Position numbers and translations under genes: made by a program. Positions 61-17,604 of a stretch of DNA of 17,604 bases are shown here, piece after piece. The stretch is from a virus, in the UHGV virus genome UHGV-0097368, one strand, 5' to 3'. A model generated the notes under the pieces. It was not told the DNA's origin. It ran no database searches and was given only the letters and a program-made list of their open reading frames with translations. Within the stretch, counting starts at the first letter, position 1, and every line of letters begins with the position of its first letter.

Positions 61-533
61 ACCTCAATCTCTCTGACCGTTCCGCCAGCTTCTTTGAATT
101 TTGCAATCAGGTTGTCAGCCTTATGCTCGAACTGACCATAACCAGCGCCCGGCAGTGAAGCCCAGATATTGCTGCAACGGTCGATTGCCTGACGAATATC
201 ACCGCGATCAATCATCGGTAAAGCGCCACGCTCTTTAATCTGCTGCAATGCCACAGCGTCCTGACTTTTGGGGGAGAAATCTTTCAGGCCAAGCTGCTTA
301 CGATAGGAATCCCACCAACGGGAAAGAAGCTGGTAGCGCCCGGCTGCTGTTGATTTGAGTTTTGGGTTTAGCGTGACCAGTTTGCGAGGGTGATCGGAGT
401 AATCAGTGAATAGCTCTCCGCCAACAATGACGTCATAACCATGATTTCTGGTTTTCTGTCGTCCGTTATCAGTTCCCTCTGACCACGCCAGCATATCGAG
501 GAACGCCTTACGTTGATTATTGATTTCCACCAT
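57..533 (-). CDS. R: Endolysin (lytic transglycosylase), lambda R type
   Basis: 158 aa [38 protein letters not shown]..., essentially the lambda R protein; sits directly downstream of the holin gene. Confidence 0.95.
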
Positions 534-840
534 CTTCTACTCCGGCTTTTTTAGCAGCGAAGCGTTTGATAAGCGAACCAATCGAGTCAGTACCGATGTA
601 GCCGATGAACACGCTCGTTATATAAGCGAGATTGCTACTTAATCCGGCGAAGTCGAGAAGGTCACGAATGAACCAGGCGATAATGGCGCACATCGTTGCG
701 TCGATTACTGTTTTTGTAAACGCACCGCCATTATACCTGCCGCGAAGGTACGCCATTGCAAACGCAAGGATTGCCCCGATGCCTTGTTCCTTTGCCGCGA
801 GAATGGCGGCTAACAGGTCATGTTTTTCTGGCATCTTCAT
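517..840 (-). CDS. S: Holin/antiholin S (S107/S105 dual start)
   Basis: 107 aa ORF beginning [39 protein letters not shown]..., lambda S type; Met1-Lys2-Met3 dual-start motif is present. Confidence 0.95.
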
Positions 841-1130
841 GTCTTACCCCCAATAAGGGGATTTGCTCTATTTAATTAGGAATAAGGTCGATTACTGATA
901 GAACAAATCCAGGCTACTGTGTTTAGTAATCAGATTTGTTCGTGACCGATATGCACGGGCAAAACGGCATGAGGTTGTTAGCGCAGCCTCTTGCCACCCG
1001 CTTTCACGAAGCCAGCCATTGCGCTGGTTTTCTTTTATGCAAAGCACACCGCACCGTAGCCACAGCGGATAAGGTGATTATTTTTGTCTGTCTGGTATTT
1101 GGCTTGATGTGCTTTCAGAAAGGCCGTGCT

Positions 1131-1167
1131 TAAAACGCAAAAAGCCCCGAGCTATTAACTCAGGGCT
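1131..1167 (-). terminator. Intrinsic terminator in the late leader, about 30-60 nt downstream of the PR' start
   Basis: On the minus-strand RNA: AGCCCUGAG-UUAAU-AGCUCGGGGCU (9-bp stem with one G-U) followed by UUUUUGCGUUUU. Confidence 0.7.
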
Positions 1168-1202
1168 TTATTTAACGAGTGCATTTATCCATCGTTGAGT
1201 CA

Positions 1203-1231
1203 AATTTACCCAATTTTATTCAATAAGTCAA
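1203..1231 (-). promoter_or_regulatory. Late promoter PR' (with overlapping Q-utilisation region)
   Basis: Minus strand reads TTGACT-17 bp-TAAATT immediately downstream of Q; same hexamers and context as lambda PR'. Confidence 0.8.
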
Positions 1232-1273
1232 TATCATGCCGTTAATATGTTGCCATCCGTGGCAATCATGCTG

Positions 1274-1897
1274 CTAACGTGTGACCGCATTCAAAATGTT
1301 GTCTGCGATTGACTCTTCCTTGTGGCATTGCACCACCAGAGCGTCATACAGCGGCTTAACAGTGCGTGACCAGGTGGGTTGGGTAAGGTTTGGGATTAGC
1401 ATCGTTACAGCGCGATATGCTGCGCTTGCTGGCATCCTTGAATAGCCGACGCCTTTGCATCTTCCGCACTCTTTCTCAACAACTCTCCCCCACAGCTCTG
1501 TTTTGGCAATATCAACCGCACGGCCTGTACCGTGACAATCTCTGCATCTTGCGCCCGGCGTCGCGGCACTACGGCAATAATCCGCATAAGCGAATGTTGC
1601 GAGCACTTGCAGTACCTTTGCCTTAGTATTTCCTTCAAGCTTTGCCACACCACGGTATTTCCCCGATACCTTGTGTGCAAATTGCATCAGATAGTCGATA
1701 GCCTTTTGTTTGTCGTTCTGGCTGAGTTCATGCTTACCGCAGAATGCAGCCATTCCGAATCCGGCTTGTGATTGCGCCATCCCCATAGCAGCCATCACAT
1801 CAGTACCGGAAAGAGAGTCAGAAGCCGTGGCCCGTGGTGAGTCGCTCATCATCGGGCTTTTTGGCGAGTGAAATTTAGCTACGCTTTCGAGTCTCAT
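1274..1897 (-). CDS. Q: Late-gene antiterminator Q
   Basis: 207 aa [32 protein letters not shown]..., lambda Q type. Confidence 0.95.
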
Positions 1898-2558
1898 CGT
1901 CTTCTCCCTGTACCTGAATCAATGTGAGGTTTCCGCAGAACACTGCGCCGGTATCTATATACATCTGGTTGGCAAACTTGAGTGGTTTCACTGCTGGCGT
2001 ATGACCAAAGATGAACGTGTCCGCTCCTTTGATTTCTTTCACGATCCCGTCTTGTGAGTTGCTGATTCGTTCGCGGTTCCAGATTACCTGCTGATGATCA
2101 ACTGGCTTTCCAAACTCGTATTCGTCACAGGGATAATCGGCGTGGCAGATGACATATTTTTTACCTTCGCTCACCAGTTCGATGATTAACGGAAGTTCAT
2201 CTGCTTTATGGGCAAGAGCTTTAGCCAGAATTTCTTTGTCGTAATCGAGATTAAAGAACCAGCCACCGCCATTAAACAGCCAGTGATTGACGTTTCCACG
2301 CTCTGATAAGCCATCAATCATCATTTGCTCATGGTTTCCACGTACAGCTCGGAACCAGGGGAATGTGATTAATTCCAGACATTCGACGTTCTCTGTACCG
2401 CGATCGACCAAATCGCCAACCGAGATAAGCAGGTCTTTTTTGGTGTCGAATCCTATCGTCTCCAGTTTTTTCATCAGGTTCGTGTAGCATCCGTGCAGAT
2501 CGCCAACTACCCAAATATTTCGGTATTTGCTGCCATCAATTCTTTCGTAATAGCGCAT
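1875..2558 (-). CDS. ninI: Ser/Thr protein phosphatase NinI (lambda PPase)
   Basis: Starts [25 protein letters not shown]; GDLVDRG and GNHE metallophosphatase motifs; ATG at 2558 preceded by GGAG. The ORF-track N-terminal extension is probably not translated. Confidence 0.9.
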
Positions 2559-2742
2559 CTCTTTCACTCCATCCGCGATGAACCATGAGAACGTCGTTGA
2601 CGATGGCGTGCATTTTCCCGTCTTTATCATCAACGTATTTTCTTACCGTGCCGCGACTACATTTCAGTCTGCGTGCTACTTCTGTCTGGTTTCCGTATGC
2701 TTCAACGAGCATGTCTGGAATGGTTTTTACTGAGAACGTCAT
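2536..2742 (-). CDS. ninH: NinH
   Basis: 68 aa [36 protein letters not shown]..., lambda NinH type; ATGA overlap with the ninG stop. Confidence 0.9.
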
Positions 2743-3350
2743 GCGGCCTCACTTCTGCTATTTCGCAGGTCTTTGAGTTTCTGTTGGTACTCTGCCTTGA
2801 TCGCCTTGCACTCTTCGATAGTCCAGCGATGGCGGCTATGGTTTGATTCGATTTCGTCTACTGCTTCCTGCCCGATGCGGTTAATCAGTTCGACGCGATA
2901 CGGAACGAGATTTCCGCTTTTGTGCTGGTTGCACACCACGCATTGCTTGTGAATATTGCGTTCATCAAATCGGAGTTGAGGTGCCGCAGCAGTTGTCCGG
3001 TAATGTCCGGCATCCCACTGAGCAGACGTGAGCGTTCCGCACGAGATACATGGTAAGTCGCGGTCTCTTTCTCTGATGAAGGCGTTTACGGCTTGTTGGG
3101 CTTGTTTAATCCAGTAACTGCGGGGCTTTAAGGCGAGTTTTCGAATCTTAAGTTTATCTTTCTGTTTCTGCTCCTCTCGTCGTCGTTTCTTCTCTGCTGC
3201 CTTTTCCGCTTTTTCGCGTTCTTTGCTTCGTCGTTCGAGTGCTATCTTGGTTCCACACTCTGGAGAGCACCACCACTGATTGGCGAATGCAGGGTGAAAC
3301 CATTCCCGACATTCATCGTTTTTACATCGTCTTCGCGCTGGTTTAGCCAT
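2739..3350 (-). CDS. ninG: NinG (Rap) recombination endonuclease / Holliday-junction resolvase
   Basis: 203 aa [33 protein letters not shown]..., lambda NinG type with Cys clusters. Confidence 0.9.
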
Positions 3351-3513
3351 CGTCTTCTTCCTCGTACATTGAGCTATTCGGATCGCTCATCAGTTCTGCG
3401 CAGCAGTGCTCACACACGTGAACTTCCAGCACATGCAGCTTCTGACCGCAATTAGCGCACGTTAAAGCCCGCTCGACGCTTTCTTGTTCGTAACTTCGAT
3501 TTGGGTCAATCAC
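3343..3513 (-). CDS. ninF: NinF
   Basis: Sequence [37 protein letters not shown] matches lambda NinF. GTG start at 3513 is coupled to the ninE stop (GTGA) with GAGGA upstream; an alternative ATG at 3555 would give 70 aa. Confidence 0.75.
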
Positions 3514-3692
3514 CTTGTATTCCTCGCACGATGTCTTAGCCACCGGATATCCCACAGGTGAGCCGTGTAGTTGAAGGTTTTTACGTCAGATTCTTTTGGG
3601 ATTGGCTTGCGTTTATTTCTGGAGCGTTTCGTTGGAAGGTATTTGCAGTTTTCGCAGATTATGTCGGTGATACTTCGTCGCTGTCTCGCCAC
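3510..3692 (-). CDS. ninE: NinE
   Basis: 60 aa [39 protein letters not shown]..., lambda NinE type; GTG start preceded by AGGAGG. Confidence 0.85.
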
Positions 3693-3829
3693 ACGTCCTC
3701 CTTTTCCTGCGGTAGTGGTAACACCCCTGTTGGTGTTCTTTCACATCGGAGACACCATCGATTCCAGTAAGGTTGATTTGGTCGGAAGCGGTTATCTTCT
3801 TTGCATTCACCGCACCGATAACATCGCAT
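3659..3829 (-). CDS. ninD: NinD-position small Cys-rich protein (56 aa)
   Basis: Not in the ORF track (<60 aa). Hand translation: [59 protein letters not shown] overlaps the ninC stop (ATGA); size and position match lambda ninD. Confidence 0.7.
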
Positions 3830-4701
3830 CATGCAGCTTCCCTCCCGAAGTCGAAATCAAGCTGCCCTCCAAATATTTCGCATGACTCAGAACAAGAGCC
3901 GGTATCGAATCTTTTAGCTCGTACCATGTCCTGATACAGGGCTTGATAATCATTTTCTGAATACATTTTCGCGATACCGTCCAGCGACATTCTTCCTCGG
4001 TACATAATCTCCTTTGGCGTTTCCCGATGTCCGTCACGCACATGGGATCCCGTGATGACCTCATTAAAAACACGCTGCAATCCCTCCTCATCTTTGCAGG
4101 CAAGTCCGATTTTTTGCGTTGATTTTTTAATGCAGAATATGCAGTTACCGAGATGTTCCGGTATTTGCAAATCGAATGGTTGTTGCTTCCACCATGCGAG
4201 GATATCTTCCTTCTCAAAGTCTGACAGTTCAGCAAGATATCTGATTCCAGGCTTTGGCTTTAGCCGCTTCGGTTCATCAGCTCTGATGCCAATCCACGTG
4301 GTGTAATTCCCTCGCCCGAAATGGTCATCACAGTATTTGGTGAAGGGAACGAGTTTTAATCTGTCAGTGCAGAACGCGCCGCCGACGTATGGAGTGCCAT
4401 ATTTCTTTACCATATCGATAAATGGCTTCAGAACAGGCATTCGCGTCTGAATATCCTTTGGTTCCCATACCGTATAACCATTTGGCTGTCCAAGCTCCGG
4501 GTTGATATCAACCTGCAATACGGTGAGCGGTATATCCCAGAACTTCACAACTTCCCTGACAAACCGATATGTCATTGGATGTTCACAACCTGTATCCATG
4601 AAAACGTAATGCACGTCTTCACCTTCCCGTCGCTTTTGCTCCATTAGCCAGAGCAAATATGCTGACGTCCTGCCACCTGAGAAACTAACGACATTTATCA
4701 T
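3829..4701 (-). CDS. ninC: NinC (PAPS-reductase-like fold)
   Basis: 290 aa from [22 protein letters not shown]..., lambda NinC type; ATG at 4701 overlaps the stop of the upstream methyltransferase gene (ATGA). Confidence 0.9.
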
Positions 4702-5228
4702 GCAGCCCTCCTGACACCCTGCCCGATCGCCATCAATGCCGCTTTGGATACGGTAGTAAACATCCGTCGAGGACTGATGAATGGTCGCCAAATCAGCAGC
4801 ATGGAGCCTTTGCTGTTTCCCTTCTTCTCCAGCCCCGTCGATGGTTCGATAAAATTAATCCGTCCATCAGTGATAATGCGAACTTCGTCAACACTCTCCA
4901 GAGCCTTGCTGAACCATCCGACAGACATATCCTCTGGCACAAGCATCACTACCGGCTGTCGCTGTTGTATGCACTGCTCAGCGGCTTTTTCCACCCACGG
5001 CCTGATATTGCTGTACGGTGGGTTATTCCAGATTGCACCGTGGCTTATCCACTCAGAATTTAGCGCGTCGTCAGCCTCAGTTAGCCAGTGAGCGCACAGA
5101 GCATTTTTGTCGCTCGCTGCCGAATCCAGCCAGAATCCAAACTCAATATCCAGTGCATCAAAAAGCCAAAGCGGCGTTTGCCAGCAGTCTCTAACTTCTT
5201 TTGGTGTTTCTGATTTATGCTTAATCAT
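4698..5228 (-). CDS. Phage Dam-family DNA N6-adenine methyltransferase (orphan)
   Basis: 176 aa with CWQTP...FDALD...F.LD.AA and a NPPY catalytic motif typical of the phage N6-adenine MTase family; ATGA overlaps on both sides. Confidence 0.8.
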   Translation of the reverse strand: MIKHKSETPKEVRDCWQTPLWLFDALDIEFGFWLDSAASDKNALCAHWLTEADDALNSEWISHGAIWNNPPYSNIRPWVEKAAEQCIQQRQPVVMLVPEDMSVGWFSKALESVDEVRIITDGRINFIEPSTGLEKKGNSKGSMLLIWRPFISPRRMFTTVSKAALMAIGQGVRRAA

Positions 5229-5752
5229 TCAACCCTCGCATATTGTCCGTGATATTTGTTGATAGCCTCACTGGCAACCAAACCAGCAAGCTCAAGATCT
5301 TCATAGAACCCAAAATGCAACCGGCCAAAATCTGTGCGCACTTGAACGGCCCATTTATTTTTTTGCTTGTTCCATAAAACATTTTTTATTCCAGAACGGC
5401 TATTGCACTTAGTTTTCTGATTTCGGCTGTTTGCTATCCGGCTTGCCTCCCTAAGATTTTTTGGGGAATTGTCCAGCCTGTTTCCGTTAATATGGTCAAT
5501 ATTTTTCAATGGCATTCTTTTGTTGTGCAGCGCAAAAACAACTACGTGAACAAACATCTGAATGCCTGCAAAACACACCTGTCTATACCCAGATCCATTT
5601 ATCGATGTTTTAATTTCATCTCCGGCCCGGTGGCTGTGGTTGGGGTGTTTTAGCGAGTCCTTTTTGTACCTGACTGTATCTCCGTCTAAATACAGATAAT
5701 CCTCAATAAGCCGATACCTATCTGACGCTGGCGTATTTGATTTGATAGTCAT
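5225..5752 (-). CDS. HNH homing endonuclease with C-terminal AP2-like DNA-binding domain
   Basis: 175 aa from MTIKSNTPASDRY...; HNH_3-type motif HVVVFALHNKRMPLKNIDHINGNRLDNSPKNLREASRIANSRN; C-terminal WNKQKNKWAVQVRTDFGRLHFGFYEDLELAG is AP2-like. Visibly more AT-rich than the flanks. Confidence 0.8.
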   Translation of the reverse strand: MTIKSNTPASDRYRLIEDYLYLDGDTVRYKKDSLKHPNHSHRAGDEIKTSINGSGYRQVCFAGIQMFVHVVVFALHNKRMPLKNIDHINGNRLDNSPKNLREASRIANSRNQKTKCNSRSGIKNVLWNKQKNKWAVQVRTDFGRLHFGFYEDLELAGLVASEAINKYHGQYARVE

Positions 5753-6189
5753 GCAGCCCGATCTCCCCATCTCGCTTTCCACTCCAGAGCCAGTCTCGCT
5801 TCGTCTGACCACTTAACGCCACGCTCTGTACCGAATGCCTGTATAAGCTCTAATAGATCCGCAAATTCGCTTACACGCATCCTGCTGGTTGACTGGCCTA
5901 TTACCACAAAGCCATTCCCGGCAAGGTTAGGAACAACATCCTGCTGCTTTAATGCTGCGGTAAACACACACTTCCAGCTTTCTGCATCCAGCCAGCGACC
6001 ATGCCATTCAACCTGACGAGAGACGTCACCAAGGCAAGCCCAAAGCTTTCGATTCTGGTCTAAGCTGCGGTTGCGTTCCTGAATGGTTACTACGATTGGT
6101 TTGGTTGGGTCTGGAAGGATTTGCTGTACTGCGTGAATAGCGTTTTGCTGATGTGCTGGAGATCGAATTTCAAAGGTTAGTTTTTTCAT
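5749..6189 (-). CDS. ninB: NinB (Orf-family recombination mediator)
   Basis: 146 aa from MKKLTFEIRSPAHQQNAIHAVQQILPDPTKPIVVTIQERN..., lambda NinB type. Confidence 0.9.
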   Translation of the reverse strand: MKKLTFEIRSPAHQQNAIHAVQQILPDPTKPIVVTIQERNRSLDQNRKLWACLGDVSRQVEWHGRWLDAESWKCVFTAALKQQDVVPNLAGNGFVVIGQSTSRMRVSEFADLLELIQAFGTERGVKWSDEARLALEWKARWGDRAA

Positions 6190-6204
6190 GACTTCCCTCT
6201 CCCC

Positions 6205-6237
6205 CAAATAAAAAGGCCTGCGATTACCAGCAGGCCT
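6205..6237 (-). terminator. Intrinsic terminator between the helicase gene and ninB (tR2-like position)
   Basis: Minus-strand RNA AGGCCUGC-UGGUAAUC-GCAGGCCU (perfect 8-bp stem) followed by UUUUUAUUU. Confidence 0.7.
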
Positions 6238-6266
6238 GTTACAAGCTCAGTGATGTAGATGGTCAT

Positions 6267-8147
6267 TTAATACTCCGTCACGTTTTCCTGTCGCCACGCC
6301 TCGTCATATTCCGATTTCGGCATATTGGCGATGTAGCTATAAGGCGATCCTGATTCAAGTTGCAGGAACTGGTGCGATTGCTCGTCAAGGAACAACGGGA
6401 CACCACCTTCCCAACCTTCGCCGTTACGTTGTTTTTCAAGCATCAAAACAGATGCCGGAGATGCCAGTAGCTGTTCGTCCTTCTCTGACATCTTTTCACC
6501 ACTCTGAACTCTCTGTAACGCTCTCTCGCGAGCCTTGTTACGCCAGATGATAAAAAGGTTGTCTGTCAGGTCTGTTATCGCTCCAGAGCCTTTTACGTCC
6601 ATTTTCCCGGTTGGTTTTTCTTCGCTATCTCCTTTTCTGGAGTGAGTAACGAGAATGACGTGGGAGTTTGTTTTGTTTTTGAAGTCACAAATCGAGTCAA
6701 CAAATGCTTTCTGCCCGTTATAGTCATCGTCACCTATGCCGCATTTCATCAGGCTGTCGATGATGAATAACTGGATGCCGTATCGGCGGCGAGCGTAGTC
6801 GAATATTTCGATCAGCCTGTCGGCTTTCGCCGTTCCAGTCAGGCCAAACACCCAAAGTCTTTCGTCATAAAATTTAAATGCAGAGTCAATTTCCAGCACT
6901 GGCGGCATCTTGCAGCACGTCGCCTGACGGGTAAGGCGCTTAAGGAGAATACCAGGCTTCAGCTCAAGTGACGCGATGCACGTCTTCACACCCTGACGCA
7001 TTGCCTCAAGTGCCATATGCCCGACAACCTCCGTTTTTCCGTGACCGTTCACACCATTGACCAGCGTCAACTCGGCCTCACGAAACTGGAATTTATCTGC
7101 CAGAGATTCCCACGGTGGATTAAACAGATACTGCTGCTTGCCGTAGAAAGCGTTGATAGTGTCCTGGTAAAACTCTCGCGCGCTGTAGAGTTCTTCAGGA
7201 TCAAAGTAGGATGCCGTGCCGATGTACTGCCAGATTTCATCCTCGGTAACACCGTTCATCAGGCATTCGTTGATGTCTTTGTACGGCAGAGTAACAAGAC
7301 GGCAACGATGTTCACCGAGTCGGCTTGCGATTTCCCCTGCGGCTTCACGACCAACATCATCAACGTCCATCGAGATGAATATTTCCTCAAACCTGTCGAG
7401 GTTGTGATACTCAAACTCAATCCACTGTTGCTTAGCGCCTTTCCCGCCACCAAACGGCACGGATAACGCCGAGATGCCGTATTGCGCATAGCTCATACAA
7501 TCAATTTCGCCTTCGCAAAGTACAACCGCCCTCACGCCAGCGTCCAGAGCCTGCCATCCGAACAGACAAGGTTCGCAATCACCTTCTGCCATAATGACTT
7601 TCTTCCCGTCCGGGCGCTCAGTGCTGATTCGCTTGACCTGCAACAACTCACCATCGCGTTTGTACGGAAGCACCAGTGCATCAAGTTCTCGTTCTCCATT
7701 CCACACCTTGCCGCTGACAACCTCGTAGCGCTTTACGACTTCTGGCGATATGCCACGCGATTGCAGGTACTCAAGATGGGATTCTGTTCTGGTAACGTAG
7801 CGGGCGATTTTCTTGCGATCAGGTCTGGAGAATTTTTTCTCACGTTTGGCATCGAAATGGTGATCGTCATCCTTGATACCGAGAAATGCTTTCGCTTCCT
7901 GCATAGCCTGATGCAGGTTAATTCCACGACATGCCATCCACAAATCAAGCATGTCACCGCCGTCTCCCTCAGCGAAATCAGCCCATTTTTTCTTGCCGCT
8001 AAGGTTGACCTTAAGGCTGTTTCCCTTGTCACCATTGACGTTACCGGCAACCCACTCATGCCCCTCTTTCTTGCCGTTTGGCAACAGGTGCGGAGCCACC
8101 CTGTCAACCTGCGCCCAAAGCAGGTCGCTAAGTTCACTTGGCGTCAT
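6267..8147 (-). CDS. Bifunctional DNA primase-helicase (Toprim primase plus DnaB/gp4-like RecA-fold helicase)
   Basis: 626 aa; Toprim-like VVLCEGEIDCMSYAQYG; Walker A GVNGHGKTEVV and Walker B LFIIDSL; N-terminal zinc-ribbon-like segment without the usual cysteines. Confidence 0.85.
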   Translation of the reverse strand: MTPSELSDLLWAQVDRVAPHLLPNGKKEGHEWVAGNVNGDKGNSLKVNLSGKKKWADFAEGDGGDMLDLWMACRGINLHQAMQEAKAFLGIKDDDHHFDAKREKKFSRPDRKKIARYVTRTESHLEYLQSRGISPEVVKRYEVVSGKVWNGERELDALVLPYKRDGELLQVKRISTERPDGKKVIMAEGDCEPCLFGWQALDAGVRAVVLCEGEIDCMSYAQYGISALSVPFGGGKGAKQQWIEFEYHNLDRFEEIFISMDVDDVGREAAGEIASRLGEHRCRLVTLPYKDINECLMNGVTEDEIWQYIGTASYFDPEELYSAREFYQDTINAFYGKQQYLFNPPWESLADKFQFREAELTLVNGVNGHGKTEVVGHMALEAMRQGVKTCIASLELKPGILLKRLTRQATCCKMPPVLEIDSAFKFYDERLWVFGLTGTAKADRLIEIFDYARRRYGIQLFIIDSLMKCGIGDDDYNGQKAFVDSICDFKNKTNSHVILVTHSRKGDSEEKPTGKMDVKGSGAITDLTDNLFIIWRNKARERALQRVQSGEKMSEKDEQLLASPASVLMLEKQRNGEGWEGGVPLFLDEQSHQFLQLESGSPYSYIANMPKSEYDEAWRQENVTEY

Positions 8148-8251
8148 GATTCCCTCAGATTGAGATTTTTAAACCAGAAATCGACAAACGAAATACTTAA
8201 CCAGCCGTGGTTATAACCAGCAACCAGTAGCGATTTGATTTTTGATTTCAT
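8144..8251 (-). CDS. Small coupled ORF (35 aa) between the initiator and primase-helicase genes
   Basis: Hand translation MKSKIKSLLVAGYNHGWLSISFVDFWFKNLNLRES; starts 4 nt after the O-like stop with AGGTG upstream; its TGA overlaps the helicase ATG (ATGA). No homolog recognised. Confidence 0.3.
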   Translation of the reverse strand: MKSKIKSLLVAGYNHGWLSISFVDFWFKNLNLRES

Positions 8252-8254
8252 GGT

Positions 8255-9115
8255 TCACCTGTCGAAAAACACGTAGCCAGTTTTCGATACGGTGATTGCG
8301 GATGATGGTTTGGATTGTGGTTGAATAGTTTCTGGCTTCTCGTCGTTCCAGCGTTGACCGTTCAGGTAGCTCGATGGTAACAACCTGTCGAATCCGAACT
8401 GCTTACCATTCCTGCATGCGATGTCTTCTGCCAGCATCGTGGCAAACTCGCTTGCCGTACCCCTGGTAGTTTTACGCCATTCCCTGAACTGTGTTCTGAA
8501 TGCCGAAGCTGCGTTTTTCTTCCCGGCTTTCCGCATGCCTGCACACCAGAATATTTCCTCGAATGCCTTGTCGGTTTCTTCGTGACGGTCATGTGATTTT
8601 TCACACTCCGTCCGAACACTTTCGGACATAGTGTTTTTATTATTTCTTTTTTCTTTTGTAATAGTTTCTTTTGTGTGTCCCTGTTTTGGTGACAGCGCTG
8701 TCACCGTTTTGGTGACACTTTTTGTCACCAATGCAGTGACATTATCACCAGAGTAGTGACACCCTTCTATTTGCCATTCCTCGATGTTCTTGTTAGGCCC
8801 GATTTGCTGGCCTTCGCGAAGGATAACCTTCATCGCGATAAGCTCATTCTTGGCCTTGTTTACCTTCTGTCTTGGCAGCCTGGTAATTTGAGCTAACTGA
8901 CTATCAGAGATGCGATCCATCTTTTTACCGTAGCCGTATGTTTTACGGCATATGGCGTGGGCAACCTTGCTCTGATTTTTCGTTAAATCTGCGCCGATAA
9001 GCTCTTCATACAGGGCATTTGCAAGACGGGTATAACCATCTTCAACTTCTGCCACACGACGCTCCACAGGCCGTTGTGAAGGCCTTAAATGTGTTACGGT
9101 TGCAAGATTACTCAT
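8255..9115 (-). CDS. Replication initiator, lambda O-like N-terminal iteron-binding domain with a different C-terminal domain
   Basis: 286 aa; N-terminal [56 protein letters not shown] resembles the lambda O N-domain; iterons lie inside the gene; AAGGAG upstream of the ATG. Confidence 0.8.
8630..8764 (-). repeat. Replication origin: four palindromic iterons (8688-8764) followed by an AT-rich tract (8630-8686) inside the O-like gene
   Basis: Plus strand reads GGTGACAGCGCTGTCACC, GGTGACACTTTTTGTCACC, GCAGTGACATTATCACC, GTAGTGACACCC at roughly 23-bp spacing, next to TTTTATTATTTCTTTTTTCTTTTGTAATAGTTTCTTTTG. Confidence 0.75.
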
Positions 9116-9254
9116 GACCTTTCTCCTTCTGCATCAGCTTCACTTTTTCCAACTCAGCCCGGAATCGACCAGGCTGCTTGAAGCTGGACAGGAAGCGATC
9201 ACGTAGTATGTGTTTGTGAATTTTGTCCTGGTAAGGACTGAGTTGTTTTGTCAT
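9108..9254 (-). CDS. Small basic ORF (48 aa) between cII and the initiator gene
   Basis: Hand translation [48 protein letters not shown]; GGGAG 5 nt upstream of the ATG; overlaps the O-like start by 8 nt. No homolog recognised. Confidence 0.35.
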
Positions 9255-9288
9255 AATTACTCCCGTGGATTGATCCAGTCTTTCTACA

Positions 9289-9567
9289 TTAGGCCTCGAA
9301 GAATTCGCCGTTCTTCGGGGCTTTTTCTTTTGTCAGCATTCTGGCTACTTGCTTAGCCAGTTCCGCCAACTCCTCGTCTTCAACACCCCATTCCAGCACA
9401 GCCAGAAGCATGGCCATCTTTGGGATAAAGCTGTCTTTCCATCGCGAAATTTGCGATTCATTAATCCCTAACGCGTCGGCAACCTTTCGCTGACCACGTA
9501 CAGCAATTCGATTCAGGATGTTGCTTGTAATTGCATTCGCTTTCTTGCGAGTACTTGTAAGTTGCAT
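9289..9567 (-). CDS. cII: cII-like transcriptional activator (divergent from lambda cII)
   Basis: 92 aa from [61 protein letters not shown]; helix-turn-helix SQISRWK and the LLAVLEWG segment are shared with lambda cII; N- and C-termini differ. Confidence 0.85.
9294..9331 (+). terminator. Intrinsic terminator antisense to the 3' end of cII (oop-RNA-type terminator)
   Basis: Plus strand CCTCGAAGAA-TTCGCCG-TTCTTCGGGG followed by CTTTTTCTTTT. Position and orientation match the lambda oop terminator; the promoter could not be placed confidently. Confidence 0.6.
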
Positions 9568-9577
9568 ATGTAAGTAT
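9545..9577 (+). promoter_or_regulatory. Candidate PRE (cII-activated promoter): TTGC-N6-TTGT plus AAGTAT -10
   Basis: TTGCGAGTACTTGT at 9545-9558 and AAGTAT at 9572-9577 have the same spacing as the lambda TTGC-N6-TTGC / -10 arrangement; a perfect TTGCTTGTAATTGC also lies at 9521-9534. Confidence 0.5.
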
Positions 9578-9646
9578 TTCCTTAGATAACAATTGATTGA
9601 ATGTATGCAAATAAATGCATACACCATAGGTGTGGTTTAATTTGAT

Positions 9647-9678
9647 GCCCTTTTTCAGGGCTGGAATGTGTAAGAGCG
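9647..9678 (-). promoter_or_regulatory. nutR (boxA CGCTCTTAC, boxB GCCCTGAAAAAGGGC)
   Basis: Reverse complement of 9647-9678 gives CGCTCTTACACATTCCAGCCCTGAAAAAGGGC just downstream of cro. Confidence 0.85.
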
Positions 9679-9685
9679 GGGTTAT

Positions 9686-9895
<210 letters not shown>

Positions 9896-9910
9896 TTAGT
9901 ACATGCAACC

Positions 9911-9980
9911 ATTATCACCGCTAGAGGTAAAATAGTCAACACGCACGGTGTTAGATATTTATCCCTTGCGGTGATAGATT
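9911..9980. promoter_or_regulatory. Right operator OR1-OR2-OR3 with divergent promoters PR (minus) and PRM (plus)
   Basis: OR1 9913-9929 TATCACCGCTAGAGGTA, OR2 9937-9953 CAACACGCACGGTGTTA, OR3 9960-9976 TATCCCTTGCGGTGATA. PR -10 (rc GATAAT) 9911-9916 and -35 (rc TTGACT) 9934-9939; PRM -35 TAGATA 9952-9957 and -10 TAGATT 9975-9980. Confidence 0.9.
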
Positions 9981-9983
9981 TAA

Positions 9984-10700
<717 letters not shown>

Positions 10701-10812
10701 TCGGCAAGGTGTTCTGGTCGGCGCATAGCTGATAACAATTGAGCAAGAATCTTCATCGAATTAGGGGAATTTTCACTCCCCTCAGAACATAACATAGTAA
10801 ATGGATTGAATT

Positions 10813-11652
10813 ATGAAGAATGGTTTTTATGCGACTTACCGCAGCAAAAATAAAGGGAAAGATAAGCGCTCAATAAACCTGTCTGTTTTCCTTAATTCTC
10901 TGCTGGCTGATAATCATCACCTGCAGGTTGGCTCCAATTATTTGTATATTCATAAAATCGATGGAAAAACTTTTCTCTTTACCAAAACAAATGACAAGAG
11001 TCTGGTTCAGAAGATAAATCGCTCTAAAGCTTCAGTTGAAGATATTAAGAACAGCCTCGCAGATGACGAATCATTGGGATTCCCATCTTTTTTGTTTGTT
11101 GAAGGCGACACCATTGGTTTTGCCAGAACTGTTTTCGGGCCGACCACATCCGATCTGACAGATTTTTTAATCGGGAAAGGAATGTCATTAAGCAGTGGAG
11201 AGCGCGTTCAGATAGAGCCACTGATGAGGGGAACCACCAAAGACGATGTTATGCATATGCATTTCATCGGCCGAACAACGGTGAAGGTAGAAGCCAAGCT
11301 ACCTGTATTTGGCGATATATTAAAGGTCTTAGGGGCAACAGATATTGAAGGGGAGCTTTTTGACTCATTGGATATAGTCATTAAGCCAAAATTTAAAAGG
11401 GATATAAAAAAGGTTGCCAAGGATATTATTTTTAACCCGTCACCTCAATTTTCAGACATTAGCCTGCGGGCAAAAGATGAGGCCGGAGATATTTTAACAG
11501 AACATTATCTATCAGAAAAAGGCCATCTCTCAGCGCCTCTGAACAAGGTCACCAATGCTGAGATAGCTGAAGAGATGGCATATTGCTACGCAAGAATGAA
11601 AAGTGATATACTGGAATGTTTTAAAAGGCAGGTGGGCAAAGTTAAGGATTAA
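10813..11652 (+). CDS. rexA: RexA (Rex exclusion system sensor component)
   Basis: 279 aa MKNGFYATYRSKNKGKDKRSINLSVFLNSLLADNHHLQ..., lambda RexA. Confidence 0.95.
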   Translation: MKNGFYATYRSKNKGKDKRSINLSVFLNSLLADNHHLQVGSNYLYIHKIDGKTFLFTKTNDKSLVQKINRSKASVEDIKNSLADDESLGFPSFLFVEGDTIGFARTVFGPTTSDLTDFLIGKGMSLSSGERVQIEPLMRGTTKDDVMHMHFIGRTTVKVEAKLPVFGDILKVLGATDIEGELFDSLDIVIKPKFKRDIKKVAKDIIFNPSPQFSDISLRAKDEAGDILTEHYLSEKGHLSAPLNKVTNAEIAEEMAYCYARMKSDILECFKRQVGKVKD

Positions 11653-11667
11653 TTATCAGGAGTAATT

Positions 11668-12102
11668 ATGCGGAACAGAATCATGCCTGGTGTTTACATA
11701 GTAATAATTCCTTACGTTATCGTAAGCATTTGCTATCTCCTTTTCCGCCACTACATTCCTGGTGTTTCTTTTTCAGCTCATAGAGATGGTCTTGGGGCGA
11801 CATTGTCATCATATGCAGGAACCATGATTGCAATCCTGATTGCTGCCTTGACGTTTCTAATCGGAAGCAGAACGCGCCGACTGGCCAAGATTAGAGAGTA
11901 TGGGTATATGACATCGGTAGTTATTGTCTATGCCCTTAGTTTTGTTGAGCTTGGAGCTTTGTTTTTCTGCGGGTTATTGCTTCTTTCCAGCATAAGCGGC
12001 TACATGATACCCACTATCGCCATCGGCATTGCCTCTGCATCGTTCATTCATATATGCATCCTTGTTTTCCAACTATATAATTTGACCAGAGAACAAGAAT
12101 AA
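11668..12102 (+). CDS. rexB: RexB (Rex exclusion system membrane component)
   Basis: 144 aa hydrophobic MRNRIMPGVYIVIIPYVIVSICYLLFRHY..., lambda RexB. Confidence 0.95.
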   Translation: MRNRIMPGVYIVIIPYVIVSICYLLFRHYIPGVSFSAHRDGLGATLSSYAGTMIAILIAALTFLIGSRTRRLAKIREYGYMTSVVIVYALSFVELGALFFCGLLLLSSISGYMIPTIAIGIASASFIHICILVFQLYNLTREQE

Positions 12103-12128
12103 CCCGGCCTCAGCGCCGGGTTTTCTTT
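12103..12128 (+). terminator. Intrinsic terminator after rexB (tIMM)
   Basis: CCCGGC-CTCAGC-GCCGGG followed by TTTTCTTT immediately after the rexB stop. Confidence 0.8.
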
Positions 12129-12275
12129 GCCTCACGATCGCCCCCAAAACACATAACCAATTGTATTTATTGAAAAATAAATAGATACAACTCACTAAAC
12201 ATAGCAATTCAGATCCCTCACCTACCAAACAATGCCCCCCTGCAAAAAATAAATTCATATAAAAAACATACAGAT

Positions 12276-12337
12276 AACCATCTGCGGTGATAAATTATCT
12301 CTGGCGGTGTTGACATAAATACCACTGGCGGTGATAC
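12276..12337 (+). promoter_or_regulatory. Left operator OL3-OL2-OL1 and promoter PL
   Basis: OL3 AACCATCTGCGGTGATA 12276-12292, OL2 TATCTCTGGCGGTGTTG 12296-12312, OL1 TACCACTGGCGGTGATA 12320-12336; -35 TTGACA 12310-12315; -10 GATACT 12332-12337. Confidence 0.92.
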
Positions 12338-12378
12338 TGAGCACATCAGCAGGACGCACTGACCACCATTGAAGGTGA

Positions 12379-12409
12379 GGTTCTTAAAAATTAAGCCCTG
12401 AAGAAGGGC
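12379..12409 (+). promoter_or_regulatory. nutL (boxB GCCCTGAAGAAGGGC; boxA position reads GGTTCTTAAAAATTAA)
   Basis: boxB hairpin at 12395-12409 is canonical; the preceding boxA-position sequence deviates from the CGCTCTT(T)A consensus at two bases. Confidence 0.8.
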
Positions 12410-12677
12410 AGCATTCAAAGCAGAAGGCTTTGGGGTGTGGTGAAGCCAGCTAGTCACTGGCAAGTGCTTACCTACTGTTGAGCGGTGAAGCGCTCCCAAC
12501 GCTAGCAATAGCGTGGACGAGATGGGGAGCCGCGGGCGATAAGGCCGCCATAACGCGCACGTTGTCGCATGGAAAAATCGCTGGGGTGCCGGTTATCCCC
12601 CTCCGAATGAGACTCAACAAGCTGGAGCTAGACTACCAGCCACCACACCACCAAAGCTAACTGACAGGAGAATCCAG

Positions 12678-13004
12678 ATGGATGCACAAACACGCCGCCG
12701 CGAACGTCGCGCAGAGAAACAGGCTCAATGGAAAGCAGCAAATCCCCTGTTGGTTGGGGTAAGCGCAAAACCAGTTAACCGCCCTATTCTCTCGCTGAAT
12801 CGCAAACCGAAATCACGAGTAGAAAGCGCACTGAATCCGATAGACCTTACGGTGCTGGCTGAATACCACGAACAGATTGAAAGCAACCTGCAACGTATTG
12901 AACGCAAGAATCAGCGCACATGGTACAGCAAGCCACGCAGTGAAATGGGTGTGACTTGTGTTGGTCGCCAGAAAATGAAATTAGGCAGCAAACCACTTAT
13001 TTGA
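12678..13004 (+). CDS. N: Antiterminator N (lambda-type, variant C-terminal region)
   Basis: 108 aa MDAQTRRRERRAEKQAQWKAANPLLVGVSAKPVNRPILSLNRKPKSRVESALNPIDLTVLAEYH...; Arg-rich boxB-binding motif at the N-terminus; the last ~25 residues differ from lambda N as I recall it. Confidence 0.92.
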   Translation: MDAQTRRRERRAEKQAQWKAANPLLVGVSAKPVNRPILSLNRKPKSRVESALNPIDLTVLAEYHEQIESNLQRIERKNQRTWYSKPRSEMGVTCVGRQKMKLGSKPLI

Positions 13005-13012
13005 GGTGAGAT

Positions 13013-13483
13013 ATGACAAAATCATGGAGCGTACCTTTTCCTGAATCAGAAACTGAACATGATGGAATGCCTGTTTTCTGGAGATTCCAGGCGACAGTTG
13101 AAGAAGATGGGATAAAAATATTCGCACTTCAATATATAGCTTTTCATCAGACAGAGCATTATGCATGGTTGGTTCCTGCGCATTGGATTGTTAATTTTAA
13201 ACCAGCACCAAATCAGTGGTTACAGGAATGGAAACAAAGGAGAAATAGATATGCAATTAAGAAAGTAGCAAAAAATGCAGAAAGATCTTTTGCATTCCCA
13301 ACGAAGAAACTTGCCATTGAGAGTTTATTGCGCCGGAAGAAATACCATTTAATGAGAATCAAACAAGATTTGGCTGTTGTATCAACTCTTGTTGATGGGA
13401 TGAAGAATATTGATACATCAACACCAGATATTGAATATAACTTTGGGCACAACCAAGAAACAGAAAATTGGGTATTTTATTAG
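13013..13483 (+). CDS. Hypothetical 156 aa protein (AT-rich moron at the position of lambda ral/sieB)
   Basis: Uninterrupted ORF starting 9 nt after the N stop with GAGGTGAG upstream; no family recognised; codon-level AT-richness far above the neighbours. Confidence 0.6.
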   Translation: MTKSWSVPFPESETEHDGMPVFWRFQATVEEDGIKIFALQYIAFHQTEHYAWLVPAHWIVNFKPAPNQWLQEWKQRRNRYAIKKVAKNAERSFAFPTKKLAIESLLRRKKYHLMRIKQDLAVVSTLVDGMKNIDTSTPDIEYNFGHNQETENWVFY

Positions 13484-13587
13484 TACGAGTAAGCACTGTG
13501 TGTTAATTCCAACGAGTGAATACACGGAGCAATGTCGCTCGTAACTAAACAGGAGCCGACTTGTTCTGATTATTGGAAATCTTCTTT

Positions 13588-13611
13588 GCCCTCCAATGTG
13601 AGGGCTTTTTT
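13588..13611 (+). terminator. Intrinsic terminator between orf156 and the cIII-like gene
   Basis: GCCCTC-CAATGT-GAGGGC followed by TTTTTT. Confidence 0.7.
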
Positions 13612-13677
13612 ATATGCATACCAATAACTCTTCACTCGAGGCGTTTTCGTTATGCAATCAAACAGAAGGAGCATCCT

Positions 13678-13848
13678 ATGCAACAGTTCGCTATTGCAGG
13701 GGCGGCATCGGTTCGCCCTTTCAACCCGATTTTATCGGTACAGCATTCACGAAAAAATATTTTAACCGGAGCAGACTTTAAACAACCAAGAATGAAAAGT
13801 TTGCTCGAAAAGCTTTGGGATATTTTGAAACAACAAGGCCGTCCATGA
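13678..13848 (+). CDS. cIII: cIII-like protein (FtsH-inhibitor family), divergent
   Basis: 56 aa MQQFAIAGAASVRPFNPILSVQHSRKNILTGADFKQPRMKSLLEKLWDILKQQGRP; shares MQ.AIAG at the start and the SLLE...L.DIL.Q.G tail with lambda CIII; AGGAG upstream. Confidence 0.7.
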   Translation: MQQFAIAGAASVRPFNPILSVQHSRKNILTGADFKQPRMKSLLEKLWDILKQQGRP

Positions 13849-14015
13849 GTTTTACAGATAACTGGTCAGACGAAGAATTCATTCGTCAGATGAAAGATTT
13901 AATCGGTAACGAAGGAGATATTCATGTCACTTGCAACCACAGTGAAGGAGAGCAAGTTACAGAGACGCATGTACACGCAGCAGGCGTTAATGTATCGCCA
14001 GAAGGGAGATCGTGA
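13845..14015 (+). CDS. Hypothetical small protein (56 aa) at the kil/arf position
   Basis: ATG overlaps the cIII-like stop (ATGA); MSFTDNWSDEEFIRQMKDLIGNEGDIHVTCNHSEGEQ...; no family recognised. Confidence 0.4.
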   Translation: MSFTDNWSDEEFIRQMKDLIGNEGDIHVTCNHSEGEQVTETHVHAAGVNVSPEGRS

Positions 14016-14104
14016 AGGTGTTCGCGTATTTTTAAATGCGGCAAAGACTGAAGTATTAAACCAGCGTTATTTCCTTGGGCCATGTCCATTCTGAGAACAA
14101 TCAT

Positions 14105-14710
14105 ATGAGCAAAGAATTTTACGCAAGACTGGCAGCTATTCAGGAGAATCTGAACGCGCCAAAGAATCAGTACAACTCATTCGGTAAATATAAATACAGA
14201 AGCTGCGAAGACATTCTTGAAGGCGTTAAGCCGTTACTGAATGGCCTGTTTTTATCAATCAGCGATGAAGTTGTGTTGATTGGTGATCGGTATTATGTGA
14301 AAGCCACGGCAACTATTACCGATGGCGAAAACAGTCATACGGCAACCGCTCTTGCACGAGAGGAAGAAAGCAAGAAAGGAATGGATTCTGCACAAGTTAC
14401 GGGAGCTACAAGCTCTTATGCACGCAAGTATTGCCTCAATGGTTTGTTCGGCATTGATGATGCGAAAGATGCAGATACCGACGAGCATAAACATCAGCAG
14501 AACGCAGCAGCAAAGCAGTCAAAACCATCACCTACACCTGAACAGGTTCTAAAAGCATTCACTGACGCAGCAATGCATAAAAACACCGTGGAAGAGCTTA
14601 AACAGGCTTTCGCCAAAGCGTGGAAGATGCTCGAAGGAACACCGGAGCAGCACAAAGCGCAGGACGTTTACAACATCAGACGAGACGAATTAGAAGGAGC
14701 GGCTGCTTAA
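14105..14710 (+). CDS. erf: Erf-family single-strand annealing recombinase (P22 Erf-like)
   Basis: MSKEFYARLAAIQENLNAPKNQYNSFGKYKYRSCEDILEGVKPLLNGLFLSISDEVVLIGDRYYVKATATITDGENSHTA is characteristic of the Erf family; the upstream TTG-initiated extension in the ORF track is unlikely to be used. Confidence 0.85.
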   Translation: MSKEFYARLAAIQENLNAPKNQYNSFGKYKYRSCEDILEGVKPLLNGLFLSISDEVVLIGDRYYVKATATITDGENSHTATALAREEESKKGMDSAQVTGATSSYARKYCLNGLFGIDDAKDADTDEHKHQQNAAAKQSKPSPTPEQVLKAFTDAAMHKNTVEELKQAFAKAWKMLEGTPEQHKAQDVYNIRRDELEGAAA

Positions 14711-15093
14711 TGGCACATTCGATTACTGTAAGACTAAACAAGCCCGCAAGAGAGTTTCAGGCCGGGGAAAATATCGGATTCAACATCCGTGCTGGCGTTC
14801 AGTATTACGATCGCCAGACAAAAAAGAAAGAATGGACAAACTACAGCGCCGTTGTATTTGCCAAGCCGGGAGCGCAAGCGGATTACTACCGTAGTGTTCT
14901 TGTTGAAGGTGGCATTGTGGAAATTACCGGAGAAAACATCAGGGTTGATGTTTATCAGGGGCAAAATGGTCAATCAATCACTCTTGAATTACTGAATGCA
15001 AAGATTGGATTTGCAACTTCAGGAAACAGCCAACAGCAGCAAAGTAGCAATCATCAAAATCATCCTGAATACGACGATTCAATTCCCTTCTAG
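14710..15093 (+). CDS. Phage single-stranded DNA-binding protein (OB fold, acidic C-terminal tail)
   Basis: 127 aa from MAHSITVRLNK...; Gln-rich linker and C-terminal EYDDSIPF tail like the SSB DDDIPF tip; ATG overlaps the erf stop (TAATG). Confidence 0.75.
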   Translation: MAHSITVRLNKPAREFQAGENIGFNIRAGVQYYDRQTKKKEWTNYSAVVFAKPGAQADYYRSVLVEGGIVEITGENIRVDVYQGQNGQSITLELLNAKIGFATSGNSQQQQSSNHQNHPEYDDSIPF

Positions 15094-15116
15094 ATTAGCA
15101 AAATAAGGATTCCATT

Positions 15117-15410
15117 ATGCCAGCGCCTCTGTATGGTGCGGATGACCCGCGCCGCTGTTCCGGCAATTCCGTATCGGAGGTGCTGGATAAATTCAGAAAA
15201 AACTACGATCGGATAATGTCGCTACCGCAGGAAACGAAAGAGGAAAAGGAATTTCGCCATTGTATATGGCTTGCAGAGAAAGAAGAACGCGAGCGAATTT
15301 ACCAGACATCAATCCGACCATTCCGCAAAGCCACATATACCCACTTCCCTGAAATTGACCCGCGCCTGCGTAATTACCGCTCACGCTATGGCGCTATCAG
15401 TAATGACTGA
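15117..15410 (+). CDS. Hypothetical protein (97 aa)
   Basis: ATG with AAGGA 7 nt upstream; MPAPLYGADDPRRCSGNSVSEVLDKFRKNYDRIMSLPQETKEEKEF...; no family recognised. Confidence 0.6.
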   Translation: MPAPLYGADDPRRCSGNSVSEVLDKFRKNYDRIMSLPQETKEEKEFRHCIWLAEKEERERIYQTSIRPFRKATYTHFPEIDPRLRNYRSRYGAISND

Positions 15411-15420
15411 GGAATTAACA

Positions 15421-15711
15421 ATGAAAACAATGAAGCTAAACATCGACCTCGGCAAATACGTTATTACCGGAACCAAACACGACCTGATTCTTAGTGAAAG
15501 AGGAATTATCAAAGAAGGTGATAATGCAGGTAAAGAAACACTAAGCCGTATCGGTTATTACAGCAAGTTTGAGCATCTGGTTAAAGAGCTATGTAACCGT
15601 GAAATCCTGTTATCTCAGGCGCAGACGCTACAGGATATTCAGCAGCATATCGAGACTTTAGGTGTTTCACTTAGCATAGCTATTGACCAGTTCGTGGAGA
15701 GTAAACCATGA
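15421..15711 (+). CDS. Hypothetical protein (96 aa)
   Basis: ATG at 15421 with GAGGA 7 nt upstream; [50 protein letters not shown]...; the longer ORF-track version starts at a non-ATG codon inside the previous gene. Confidence 0.6.
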
Positions 15712-15872
15712 GAGGACTTGCATACAATCCCGGCATTCTTCCGGCAGAAATGATTATTCGCCAACGCGTAAAGCCAATGCCATCGAGAGAGGAATTGCTT
15801 AAGAGAAATTCTTTTCCATCAGTGAATCAAAACAAATATCTGAATGCGATGTGGCGGAGTGGGAAGAAATGA
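15708..15872 (+). CDS. Hypothetical small protein (54 aa)
   Basis: Not in the ORF track; ATGA overlaps at both ends; [54 protein letters not shown]. Confidence 0.45.
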
Positions 15873-16378
15873 AACAAATGTCACTAATTGAGATGGATGG
15901 ATTTCTGAAAGGTAAATGCATCCCACGAGATTTAAAGGTTAACGAAACAAACGCTGAATATCTGGTGCGTAAATTTGCTGAAGCGGAGGCCAAGTGCGCT
16001 GCGCTGGCGGCGGAGAATGCGGGGCTGAAGGGTGCGTTTGATAAGCCTCAAGCATATCTATCCTGGCACGCTATTCCACCAACCTGGGAAGACCCGCTCC
16101 CATGCGGTGAATATCTTGATGTTCATGACGAGGCAGGACACAAAAACTCCGATGGAACTGATTGCTGGCCGGTATATGCCAAGCCAGAAATCGAAACCCC
16201 AGCCACCGACGCTTTCTTGGCTGAAGTACGTGCGCAGGCGTTTAATGACCTTTGCTCGGTGTTCGTTAAGGACGCGACGGTTGCCGGGCTGGACGATGGC
16301 GACATCGTTACGGTGAAAGAAGCGAAGGACGCCCTGCTGCATTGTGCGGAGCAGCTTCGCAAAGGAGGCAACCAGTGA
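15869..16378 (+). CDS. Hypothetical protein (169 aa)
   Basis: ATG at 15869 coupled to the upstream stop; [55 protein letters not shown]...; no family recognised. Confidence 0.6.
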
Positions 16379-17118
16379 GCAAGATTGATTATCAAAAGCT
16401 TCGTGAAATCGCTGAAAAAACAAAAATTGCTGGTGAAGCACCTGTAATGCCTTTCGATCAGCGAATTAATGCGCTTAACGATTTTATGAAGCACTTTTCG
16501 CCAGATATCGCGCTGGCATTGTTGGATGAACGGGAAAGAAACCAGCAATACATCAAATCACGCGACCAGGAGAACGAGGAAATTGCGCTAACGGTAGGGA
16601 AGCTGCGTGTTGAGCTGGAAGCAGCAAATAAGCGCATAGCAGAACTGGAAGCCGAACCTGTAAGCCAAGCTTACAACTTGGCAGAATTAATCGAAGGCAT
16701 GGAAGTTTCCATTGATGTAAGCACTTGTGATGCTGATTTAGGTAATCGCTATTTCGGCACCGTCACCGAGGCGTTAGAACTTGATACTGCCAAGAATGGT
16801 TACATCCTCCTGGTTCAGGACGCAGAGCCAAACTTCGATGTAAATGGCAACTCTCCGGTAACTCCGGATGGTTGGGTTATAGTGCCGAAGAAACTAACCG
16901 CTGAGAACGGCGCTAAGGGTGTGCTATCCGGTGAATTTTCAGAAACGACGTTTATAAGCTGCCCGGAATGCTTTGGCGATGATGATTGCGATACCTGTGA
17001 CGGTAGCGGGCGGATTGAAATTAAAGTACCAGTCACGTGGACGACCATAAAATCCATCTGGGATAAAGGTATTGCGCATTTTGCAGCAAAACCGCCGCAG
17101 GAGGTTAACCGTGGCTAA
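16375..17118 (+). CDS. Ea22-like protein (coiled-coil middle, Cys-rich C-terminal region)
   Basis: GTG start with AGGAGG 6 nt upstream, overlapping the previous stop; LALLDERERNQQYIKSRDQENEEIALTVGKLRVELEAANKRIAELEA resembles lambda Ea22 as I remember it; C-terminal CPECFGDDDCDTCDGSG. Confidence 0.6.
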   Translation: MSKIDYQKLREIAEKTKIAGEAPVMPFDQRINALNDFMKHFSPDIALALLDERERNQQYIKSRDQENEEIALTVGKLRVELEAANKRIAELEAEPVSQAYNLAELIEGMEVSIDVSTCDADLGNRYFGTVTEALELDTAKNGYILLVQDAEPNFDVNGNSPVTPDGWVIVPKKLTAENGAKGVLSGEFSETTFISCPECFGDDDCDTCDGSGRIEIKVPVTWTTIKSIWDKGIAHFAAKPPQEVNRG

Positions 17119-17395
17119 CCTGCAACTTGCCGTCAAAGGTGAATACTTCGATGCCATGATTCGCGGGGAGAAAACGGAAGAGTATCGCTTGTGTAATGAC
17201 TACTGGGAAAAGCGCCTCGTTAACCGTAAGTATGACCGCCTGATTATCACAAAGGGATATCCGAAGCGCGACGACTCCAGCCGCAGAATTGACGTCCCGT
17301 ATGACGGATATGAAATCAAGACAATCACACATCCCCACTTCGGAGATAAACCGGTAAAGGTGTTCGCGATAAAGGTGAATATCGGCAATGAATAA
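17111..17395 (+). CDS. ASCH/PUA-like small protein
   Basis: GTG start with AGGAGG 6 nt upstream; ANLQLAVKGEYFDAMIRGEKTEEYRLCNDYWEKRLVN...YDRLIITKGY resembles ASCH-domain proteins. Confidence 0.5.
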   Translation: MANLQLAVKGEYFDAMIRGEKTEEYRLCNDYWEKRLVNRKYDRLIITKGYPKRDDSSRRIDVPYDGYEIKTITHPHFGDKPVKVFAIKVNIGNE

Positions 17396-17467
17396 CAATC
17401 CTCGCATTCGCGGGGATTTCTTTTATCTAAACTCGCTACGGCGGATTTTGTTTTATGGAGATGATAA

Positions 17468-17604
17468 ATGCACTTCCGAGTCACAGGCGAATGGAATGGA
17501 GAGCCATTCAACAGAGTTATCGAAGCAGAGAACATCAATGACTGCTATGACCACTGGATGATATGGGCGCAGATAGCACATGCAGACGTAACCAATATTC
17601 GAAT
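17468..17604 (+). CDS. Hypothetical protein, 5' part only (ORF runs off the window end)
   Basis: ATG at 17468 with GGAG 7 nt upstream; MHFRVTGEWNGEPFNRVIEAENINDCYDHWMIWAQIAHADVTNIR...; no stop before the window end. Confidence 0.45.
   Translation, partial: MHFRVTGEWNGEPFNRVIEAENINDCYDHWMIWAQIAHADVTNIR

Follow-up and report, generated by a model that had tools for sequence, protein, structure and literature searches.

A one-base difference from lambda in operator OR1 of a gut phage is a common natural allele with a small expected effect on the repressor switch

Two described forms of OR1 frame the locus studied here. In phage lambda (J02459 37998-38014) the operator reads TATCACCGCCAGAGGTA, whereas the phages HK97 (AF069529), mEp234, HK106 and CL707 (EF120459-61) carry the 17-mer TATCACCGCTAGAGGTA, which is annotated as 'operator oR1, Cro; CI' in EF120460 and EF120459. 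The window, by which we mean the whole 17,604-nucleotide stretch of viral DNA analysed (UHGV virus genome UHGV-0097368), has the second form. It shares with these four phages 81 bp over PR, OR1 and OR2, the spacing to OR2 and OR3, and the flanking genes cro and cI. The four phages differ from it in CI Thr2Ala and in about 24 further nucleotides across cro-cI, where the window is lambda-type, and HK97 additionally has CI K71N and Cro K39N (Met = residue 1), neither of which is found in the window. Compared with lambda, 16 of the 17 bases of OR1 are the same and operator position 10 is T instead of C, while OR2, OR3, OL1-3, PR, PRM, CI and Cro are identical. The window is oriented opposite to the conventional lambda map, with cI on the + strand and cro on the - strand; the features of the region are collected in Table 1.

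Direct reading and alignment to lambda J02459 confirmed a single difference in OR1, with T at window 9922 where the homologous lambda base, 38005, is C. This base is position 10 of 17, flanks the central base pair in the non-consensus half (8'), and on the PR strand is read as G to A at spacer base 12 of 17, which is -18 from the start at 9904. A sequence-only reading of the window had described just such a change, one substituted base beside the dyad in the non-consensus half and within the PR spacer, in a setting of canonical OR2, OR3, PR, PRM and OL1; each of these points held, and OL2 and OL3 likewise proved to be exact lambda strings. In every testable defining feature the site appears to be a lambda-immunity OR1. 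It is a 17-bp pseudo-palindrome whose consensus half, TATCACCGC, is intact at 9913-9921; it spans the PR spacer and -10 element, with OR2 and OR3 at lambda spacing, between the divergent cro and cI; and CI and Cro are encoded alongside, both 100% identical to the lambda proteins. Position 10 is not conserved among lambda's own six operators, in which (consensus half first) it is C, G, A, C, C and A.

Table 1. Features of the immunity region, in window coordinates
Feature	Position	Strand	Basis
OR1, HK97-type allele TATCACCGCTAGAGGTA	9913..9929		homologous to lambda operator-r1 37998-38014
Variant base T (lambda 38005 C; G to A on PR strand)	9922..9922		alignment to lambda
OR2, identical to lambda	9937..9953		exact string match to operator-r2
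OR3, identical to lambda	9960..9976		exact string match to operator-r3
PR: +1 9904, -10 GATAAT 9916-9911, 17-bp spacer with variant, -35 TTGACT 9939-9934	9904..9939	-	TTGACT-17-GATAAT found; positions transferred from EF120460 annotation
PRM: -35 9952-9957, -10 9975-9980, start at cI ATG 9987; identical to lambda	9952..9987	+	positions from EF120460 annotation
cro, protein identical to lambda Cro	9686..9886	-	sequence comparison
cI, protein identical to lambda CI; one synonymous difference at 10643	9987..10700	+	sequence comparison
OL3 12276-12292, OL2 12296-12312, OL1 12320-12336, all identical to lambda	12276..12336		exact string matches
Lambda-type immunity block: nutR side, cro, OR, cI, rexA, rexB, OL, start of N leader	9565..12443		99.76% identical to lambda

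Over the 2879 bp of the immunity block, the window departs from lambda by 5 substitutions and 2 indels. The six operators occupy about 3.5% of the block, and by our own arithmetic the probability that one of the roughly 7 differences falls in an operator is about 0.2, so that one operator difference from lambda is not statistically remarkable. Within the block rexA and rexB are intact. The block is embedded in a non-lambda mosaic with a P22-type cII, an O-like initiator and a 626-aa Toprim primase/helicase, and in no phage record or complete E. coli genome did the match exceed about two thirds of the window. Replication and nin genes at 4698-8147 (- strand) are non-lambda: by Pfam labels, the 626-aa protein is a Toprim_2/AAA_25 primase-helicase standing in place of lambda P, and ninB and a PAPS-reductase-like ninC are separated by genes for an HNH endonuclease (175 aa) and a Dam-family methylase (176 aa).

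The variant corresponds to G10-C32 to A-T in the data of Sarai & Takeda (1989), as given in Table 3 of PMC2194778, which lists experimental ddG values for all single OR1 substitutions and numbers the lambda top strand T3, A4, C5, C6, T7, C8, T9, G10, G11, C12 and onward. Its ddG for CI is +0.4 kcal/mol, or about 1.9-fold, a value from one in vitro study that we take second-hand from that table and that bears out the lowered CI affinity proposed from the sequence alone. According to the same table (PMC2194778), substitutions at C12-T15 cost 2.0-3.7 kcal/mol and some changes of C8 and T9 cost 2.8-3.6 kcal/mol; 0.4 kcal/mol is among the mildest of the tabulated OR1 changes, 6-9 times smaller in free energy than the 2.5-3.7 kcal/mol of contact positions. 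The datum applies directly to the window, because the protein measured was lambda CI, exactly that encoded here; it applies less directly to HK97, because HK97 CI differs at Thr2Ala and K71N. The T allele sits at the operator position least constrained for CI, a placement that fits both the substitution data of 1989 and the switch's known robustness.

The consequence for PR was illustrated, not measured, with an occupancy model of OR1-OR2-OR3 that contains CI only and leaves aside RNA polymerase, OL-OR looping and Cro. The two parameter sets of the model reportedly stem from the Ackers laboratory literature. In this CI-only model the T allele would require a 1.38-1.48-fold (about 1.4) higher concentration of CI dimer to reach the same PR occlusion, and unoccupied PR (leak) at fixed CI would rise at most 1.9-fold. 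As to the size of the effect in vivo, the effect on Cro and that on PR strength, we infer the following: the lysis-lysogeny set point should move only slightly, by about 1.4-fold in CI dimer concentration according to the model; the effect of T on Cro is expected to be small because the base-specific contacts of Cro lie in the outer part of each half-site; and a change at -18 in the spacer may alter promoter strength. The explanation that we hold to be very probable is a working OR1 with an HK97-type natural allele in an essentially lambda-like switch. Lambda CI would make no strong base-specific contact at position 10, and OR1 with the HK97-type T there should stay a working operator. The intrinsic affinity of OR1 for CI would fall by about 0.4 kcal/mol (about 1.9-fold) on the tabulated value, and the CI dimer required would rise only about 1.4-fold in the model, since PR repression relies on cooperative binding of CI to OR1 and OR2. 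The switch would behave approximately as lambda's does: lysogens would be stable and immunity normal, and the induction threshold would be lowered slightly at most.

A functionally important shift of the set point, in which the weaker OR1 would give hair-trigger induction or Cro or PR would change in an ecologically relevant way, is unlikely. The tabulated effect on CI does point towards weaker repression (PMC2194778), the modelled PR leak would reach up to about 1.9-fold, PR strength may be altered, and T occurs here without the Thr2Ala partner found elsewhere; however, the effect is among the smallest in the OR1 substitution table (PMC2194778), and hundreds of resident prophages carry the T allele. 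Moreover, according to the secondary summary in the discussion of PMC6544977, phages with OR1 and OR3 of identical affinity keep a stable lysogeny and a functional switch, which is consistent with a switch that tolerates much larger OR1 changes. Our literature search for vir mutation lists and for OR323/OR121 operator-swap work found none, only this secondary summary (PMC6544977), and a paper on lambda CI with related phage operators (PMC10742460) does not cover the OR1-T variant.

The sequence-only reading had also suggested a comparison with known vir-type mutations. We regard as negligible the probability of a vir-type change here, that is, of an operator-constitutive mutation permitting escape from lambda immunity. 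The T is a point change in the highest-affinity operator, the class of site that classical vir mutations strike. Its natural carriers, however, are resident prophages and temperate phages from a collection defined by lambda immunity specificity, and the window prophage itself encodes intact cI, rexA and rexB. Judged on the published data, 0.4 kcal/mol against 2.0-3.7 kcal/mol at the contact positions (PMC2194778), OR1-T lacks the large affinity loss of a vir-type change. Phage 4W (OM475432, L157) is another single-base OR1 variant on a lambda background, but its change is at the dyad-centre base (TATCACCGACAGAGGTA), equivalent to window 9921. This change is G11 to T in the table of PMC2194778 and costs 2.3 kcal/mol of CI binding, several-fold above 0.4, which shows that the effect is position-specific. 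Phage 4W may be a laboratory or selected operator mutant.

The base had further been presented as a notable departure from the canonical operator; instead, T proved to be a major natural allele, found in HK97 and wild phages. The T-allele 81-mer (9882-9962) is exactly the sequence of phages HK97, mEp234, HK106, CL707 and PhiR5_2 and 82 complete E. coli genome records contain it exactly, among them ST540 strains and members of the O104:H4 outbreak lineage; the canonical C 81-mer was exact in 112 such records. Allele-specific 34-mers gave 177 T and 175 C matches in complete E. coli genomes, and many C matches are K-12 laboratory lambda lysogens. Among loci gathered with an 89-nt degenerate pattern, T was present at 65 of 95 in IMG/VR (C at 30), and in the metagenome collection T was present at 17 and C at 12. 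T is a common natural OR1 allele, with a frequency close to that of C among complete E. coli genomes and in the majority in IMG/VR. The textbook lambda OR1 is one of two about equally common natural alleles, and a one-base departure from it at position 10 is therefore not to be flagged as a mutation here. Both the literature and the databases already contain this polymorphism together with its carriers and its influence on CI binding. What had been noticed is a near-neutral natural allele that was described correctly. It is ordinary because it is common (HK97, many E. coli prophages) and weakens repressor binding only about two-fold.

Matches in GTDB-representative genomes (L106-L127) were C in 22 of 22 cases. 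The 22 taxa are unrelated, including Shewanella, Pseudomonas, Desulfovibrio, Helicobacter, Mycobacterium and Enterococcus, and have the exact lambda OR, most of them on short or low-coverage contigs, some of which are about 48.4-48.5 kb, the length of the lambda genome. We read these matches as probable contamination of public assemblies with lambda control DNA.

Codon 3 of cI in the window (9993-9995) is ACA, which encodes Thr2 of the N-terminal arm, as in lambda, and lies 71 bp from 9922. In an 11-sequence alignment all other T sequences have A to G at the equivalent of window 9993, changing ACA to GCA (Thr2Ala), and OR1-T was completely linked to GCA in all other sampled sequences (loci L004-L010 and L011-L156). 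Pooled over all collections, the combinations of OR1 base and first base of cI codon 3 were T-G 87, C-A 52, C-G 16 and T-A 0. T-A is the haplotype of the window, and among the sequences seen only the window and one further contig (L169) carry it; a T-A 96-mer was found in none of 5,426 complete E. coli genomes, and the haplotype in none of the 95 IMG/VR, 22 GTDB-representative and 29 metagenome loci. The window thus shares the HK97-type operator allele yet falls outside the HK97-type haplotype, for it lacks the linked markers in cI and cro (ACA at codon 3, lambda-type at 24 other marker sites).

The absence of T-A elsewhere is what linkage predicts, because in a four-gamete calibration of the region just 5% of pairs of polymorphic sites separated by 51-100 bp had all four gametes; linkage alone explains this absence, which is no evidence for selection. 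The competing view is that OR1-T and CI Ala2 form a compensatory, co-adapted pair, in which case T with Thr2, as in the window, would be a mismatched and mildly deleterious recombinant. The N-terminal arm of CI binds near the operator centre (structure 1LMB), and this, together with the complete linkage in all other samples, is what such a pair would lead one to expect. Since the four-gamete calibration makes linkage sufficient, we set co-adaptation aside and consider it very unlikely. T-A persists in two distinct mosaic phages, in the crystal structure the arm of the non-consensus half is disordered (PMC2194778 Methods), and the tabulated penalty for lambda CI with Thr2 on the T operator is only 0.4 kcal/mol (PMC2194778). 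The viability of HK97-type phages is no strict proof that T with Thr2 is neutral, because the other T haplotypes examined also carry CI Thr2Ala. If OR1-T and CI Thr2Ala were a co-evolved pair and the window lineage a rare mismatched T+Thr2 recombinant with a measurably shifted set point, to which we give just as little credence, the locus would be a natural experiment on the fine-tuning of the lambda switch through contact of the arm with the non-consensus half.

To return to the ordinary natural allele, its arrival in this background can be narrowed to two routes. The C-A haplotype found in E. coli CS18F, E. coli E06 and metagenome locus L154 matches window 9653-10712 at every base except 9922 and shares with it the synonymous C at 10643; unlike the window, these three have C at OR1. 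In CS18F and E06 (L002, L003) rexA is, again unlike the window, split by IS1A (equivalent to window ~10989), and the replication genes differ. The best T-allele donor, L055, is identical to the window only over 9494-9992, and C-allele relatives match the window at least as far as L055 on both sides; for this reason a conversion patch and a recurrent C-to-T transition are indistinguishable. We infer that T would have reached the lambda-identical cro-OR-cI background by either a short recombination/conversion patch or such a transition. The prophage in CS18F and E06, the closest complete-genome relatives of the immunity region, is decayed, with IS26, ISKpn26 and truncated replication genes.

A sequencing or assembly error had also been considered from the sequence alone. 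The window corresponds in full to a gut-type metagenome contig (ENA ERZ1745016 NODE_1669, 100% identity) with a k-mer coverage of only 5.5, and the T could in principle be a miscall. Alternatively, in a sample holding both T-G and C-A imm-lambda prophages, the assembler could have joined two SNP bubbles into one chimeric path. The usual maximum k of metaSPAdes is 55, so that k-mers would not phase T and the Thr2 codon across 71 bp, and the absence of T-A from the collections searched would fit an artefact of this kind. Against this stands the second T-A contig, L169 (ERZ920117, run ERR1018305, PRJEB10878, human gut, contig k127_7855), which came from an exact-protein look-up of the neighbouring primase and has both T at OR1 and ACA at cI codon 3, as in the window. 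It derives from another sample and another assembler (MEGAHIT k127), and since k127 in MEGAHIT naming denotes 127-base k-mers, one k-mer spans 9922 and 9993. L169 is identical to the window over 5872-12647, differs at 5857, 5871 and around 3512-3520, and diverges left of 3508; in all, the window (1-17604) shares 9.1 kb with this related ERR1018305 contig, including the whole immunity region. L169 belongs to another mosaic phage, in which NinX/NinF take the place of the window's NinG/NinH. In addition, by our own arithmetic over a 1201-bp segment, a random error would give the known alternative base at a known polymorphic site about 1 time in 3600. Because the haplotype recurs in two assemblies, each time in a different mosaic phage, the T base is real and inherited in the window lineage, and an artefact is highly improbable.

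Further observations concern variation around the operator. CL707 (L006, EF120459) is a recombinant whose breakpoint lies at or near OR, with lambda-type sequence on the left side of OR1 and HK97-type sequence on the right side, and this pattern shows that recombination does occur within the OR interval. Besides OR1-T, it has an OR3 change, TATCCCTCGCGGTGATA where lambda has TATCCCTTGCGGTGATA, at the equivalent of window 9967. The T allele creates a CTAG tetranucleotide (GCTAGA) at window 9920-9924, where lambda has CCAG. The very-short-patch (Vsr) repair of E. coli acts on T/G mismatches in CTWGN contexts and would bias heteroduplex correction towards the C allele when T and C alleles recombine. 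At window 9909-9910 (PR -5 and -6, in the discriminator) natural imm-lambda haplotypes are C/T polymorphic at both bases, and all four gametes occur between these sites and the OR1 site; the window has the lambda base at each of the two, and variation there might affect the stability of the PR open complex.
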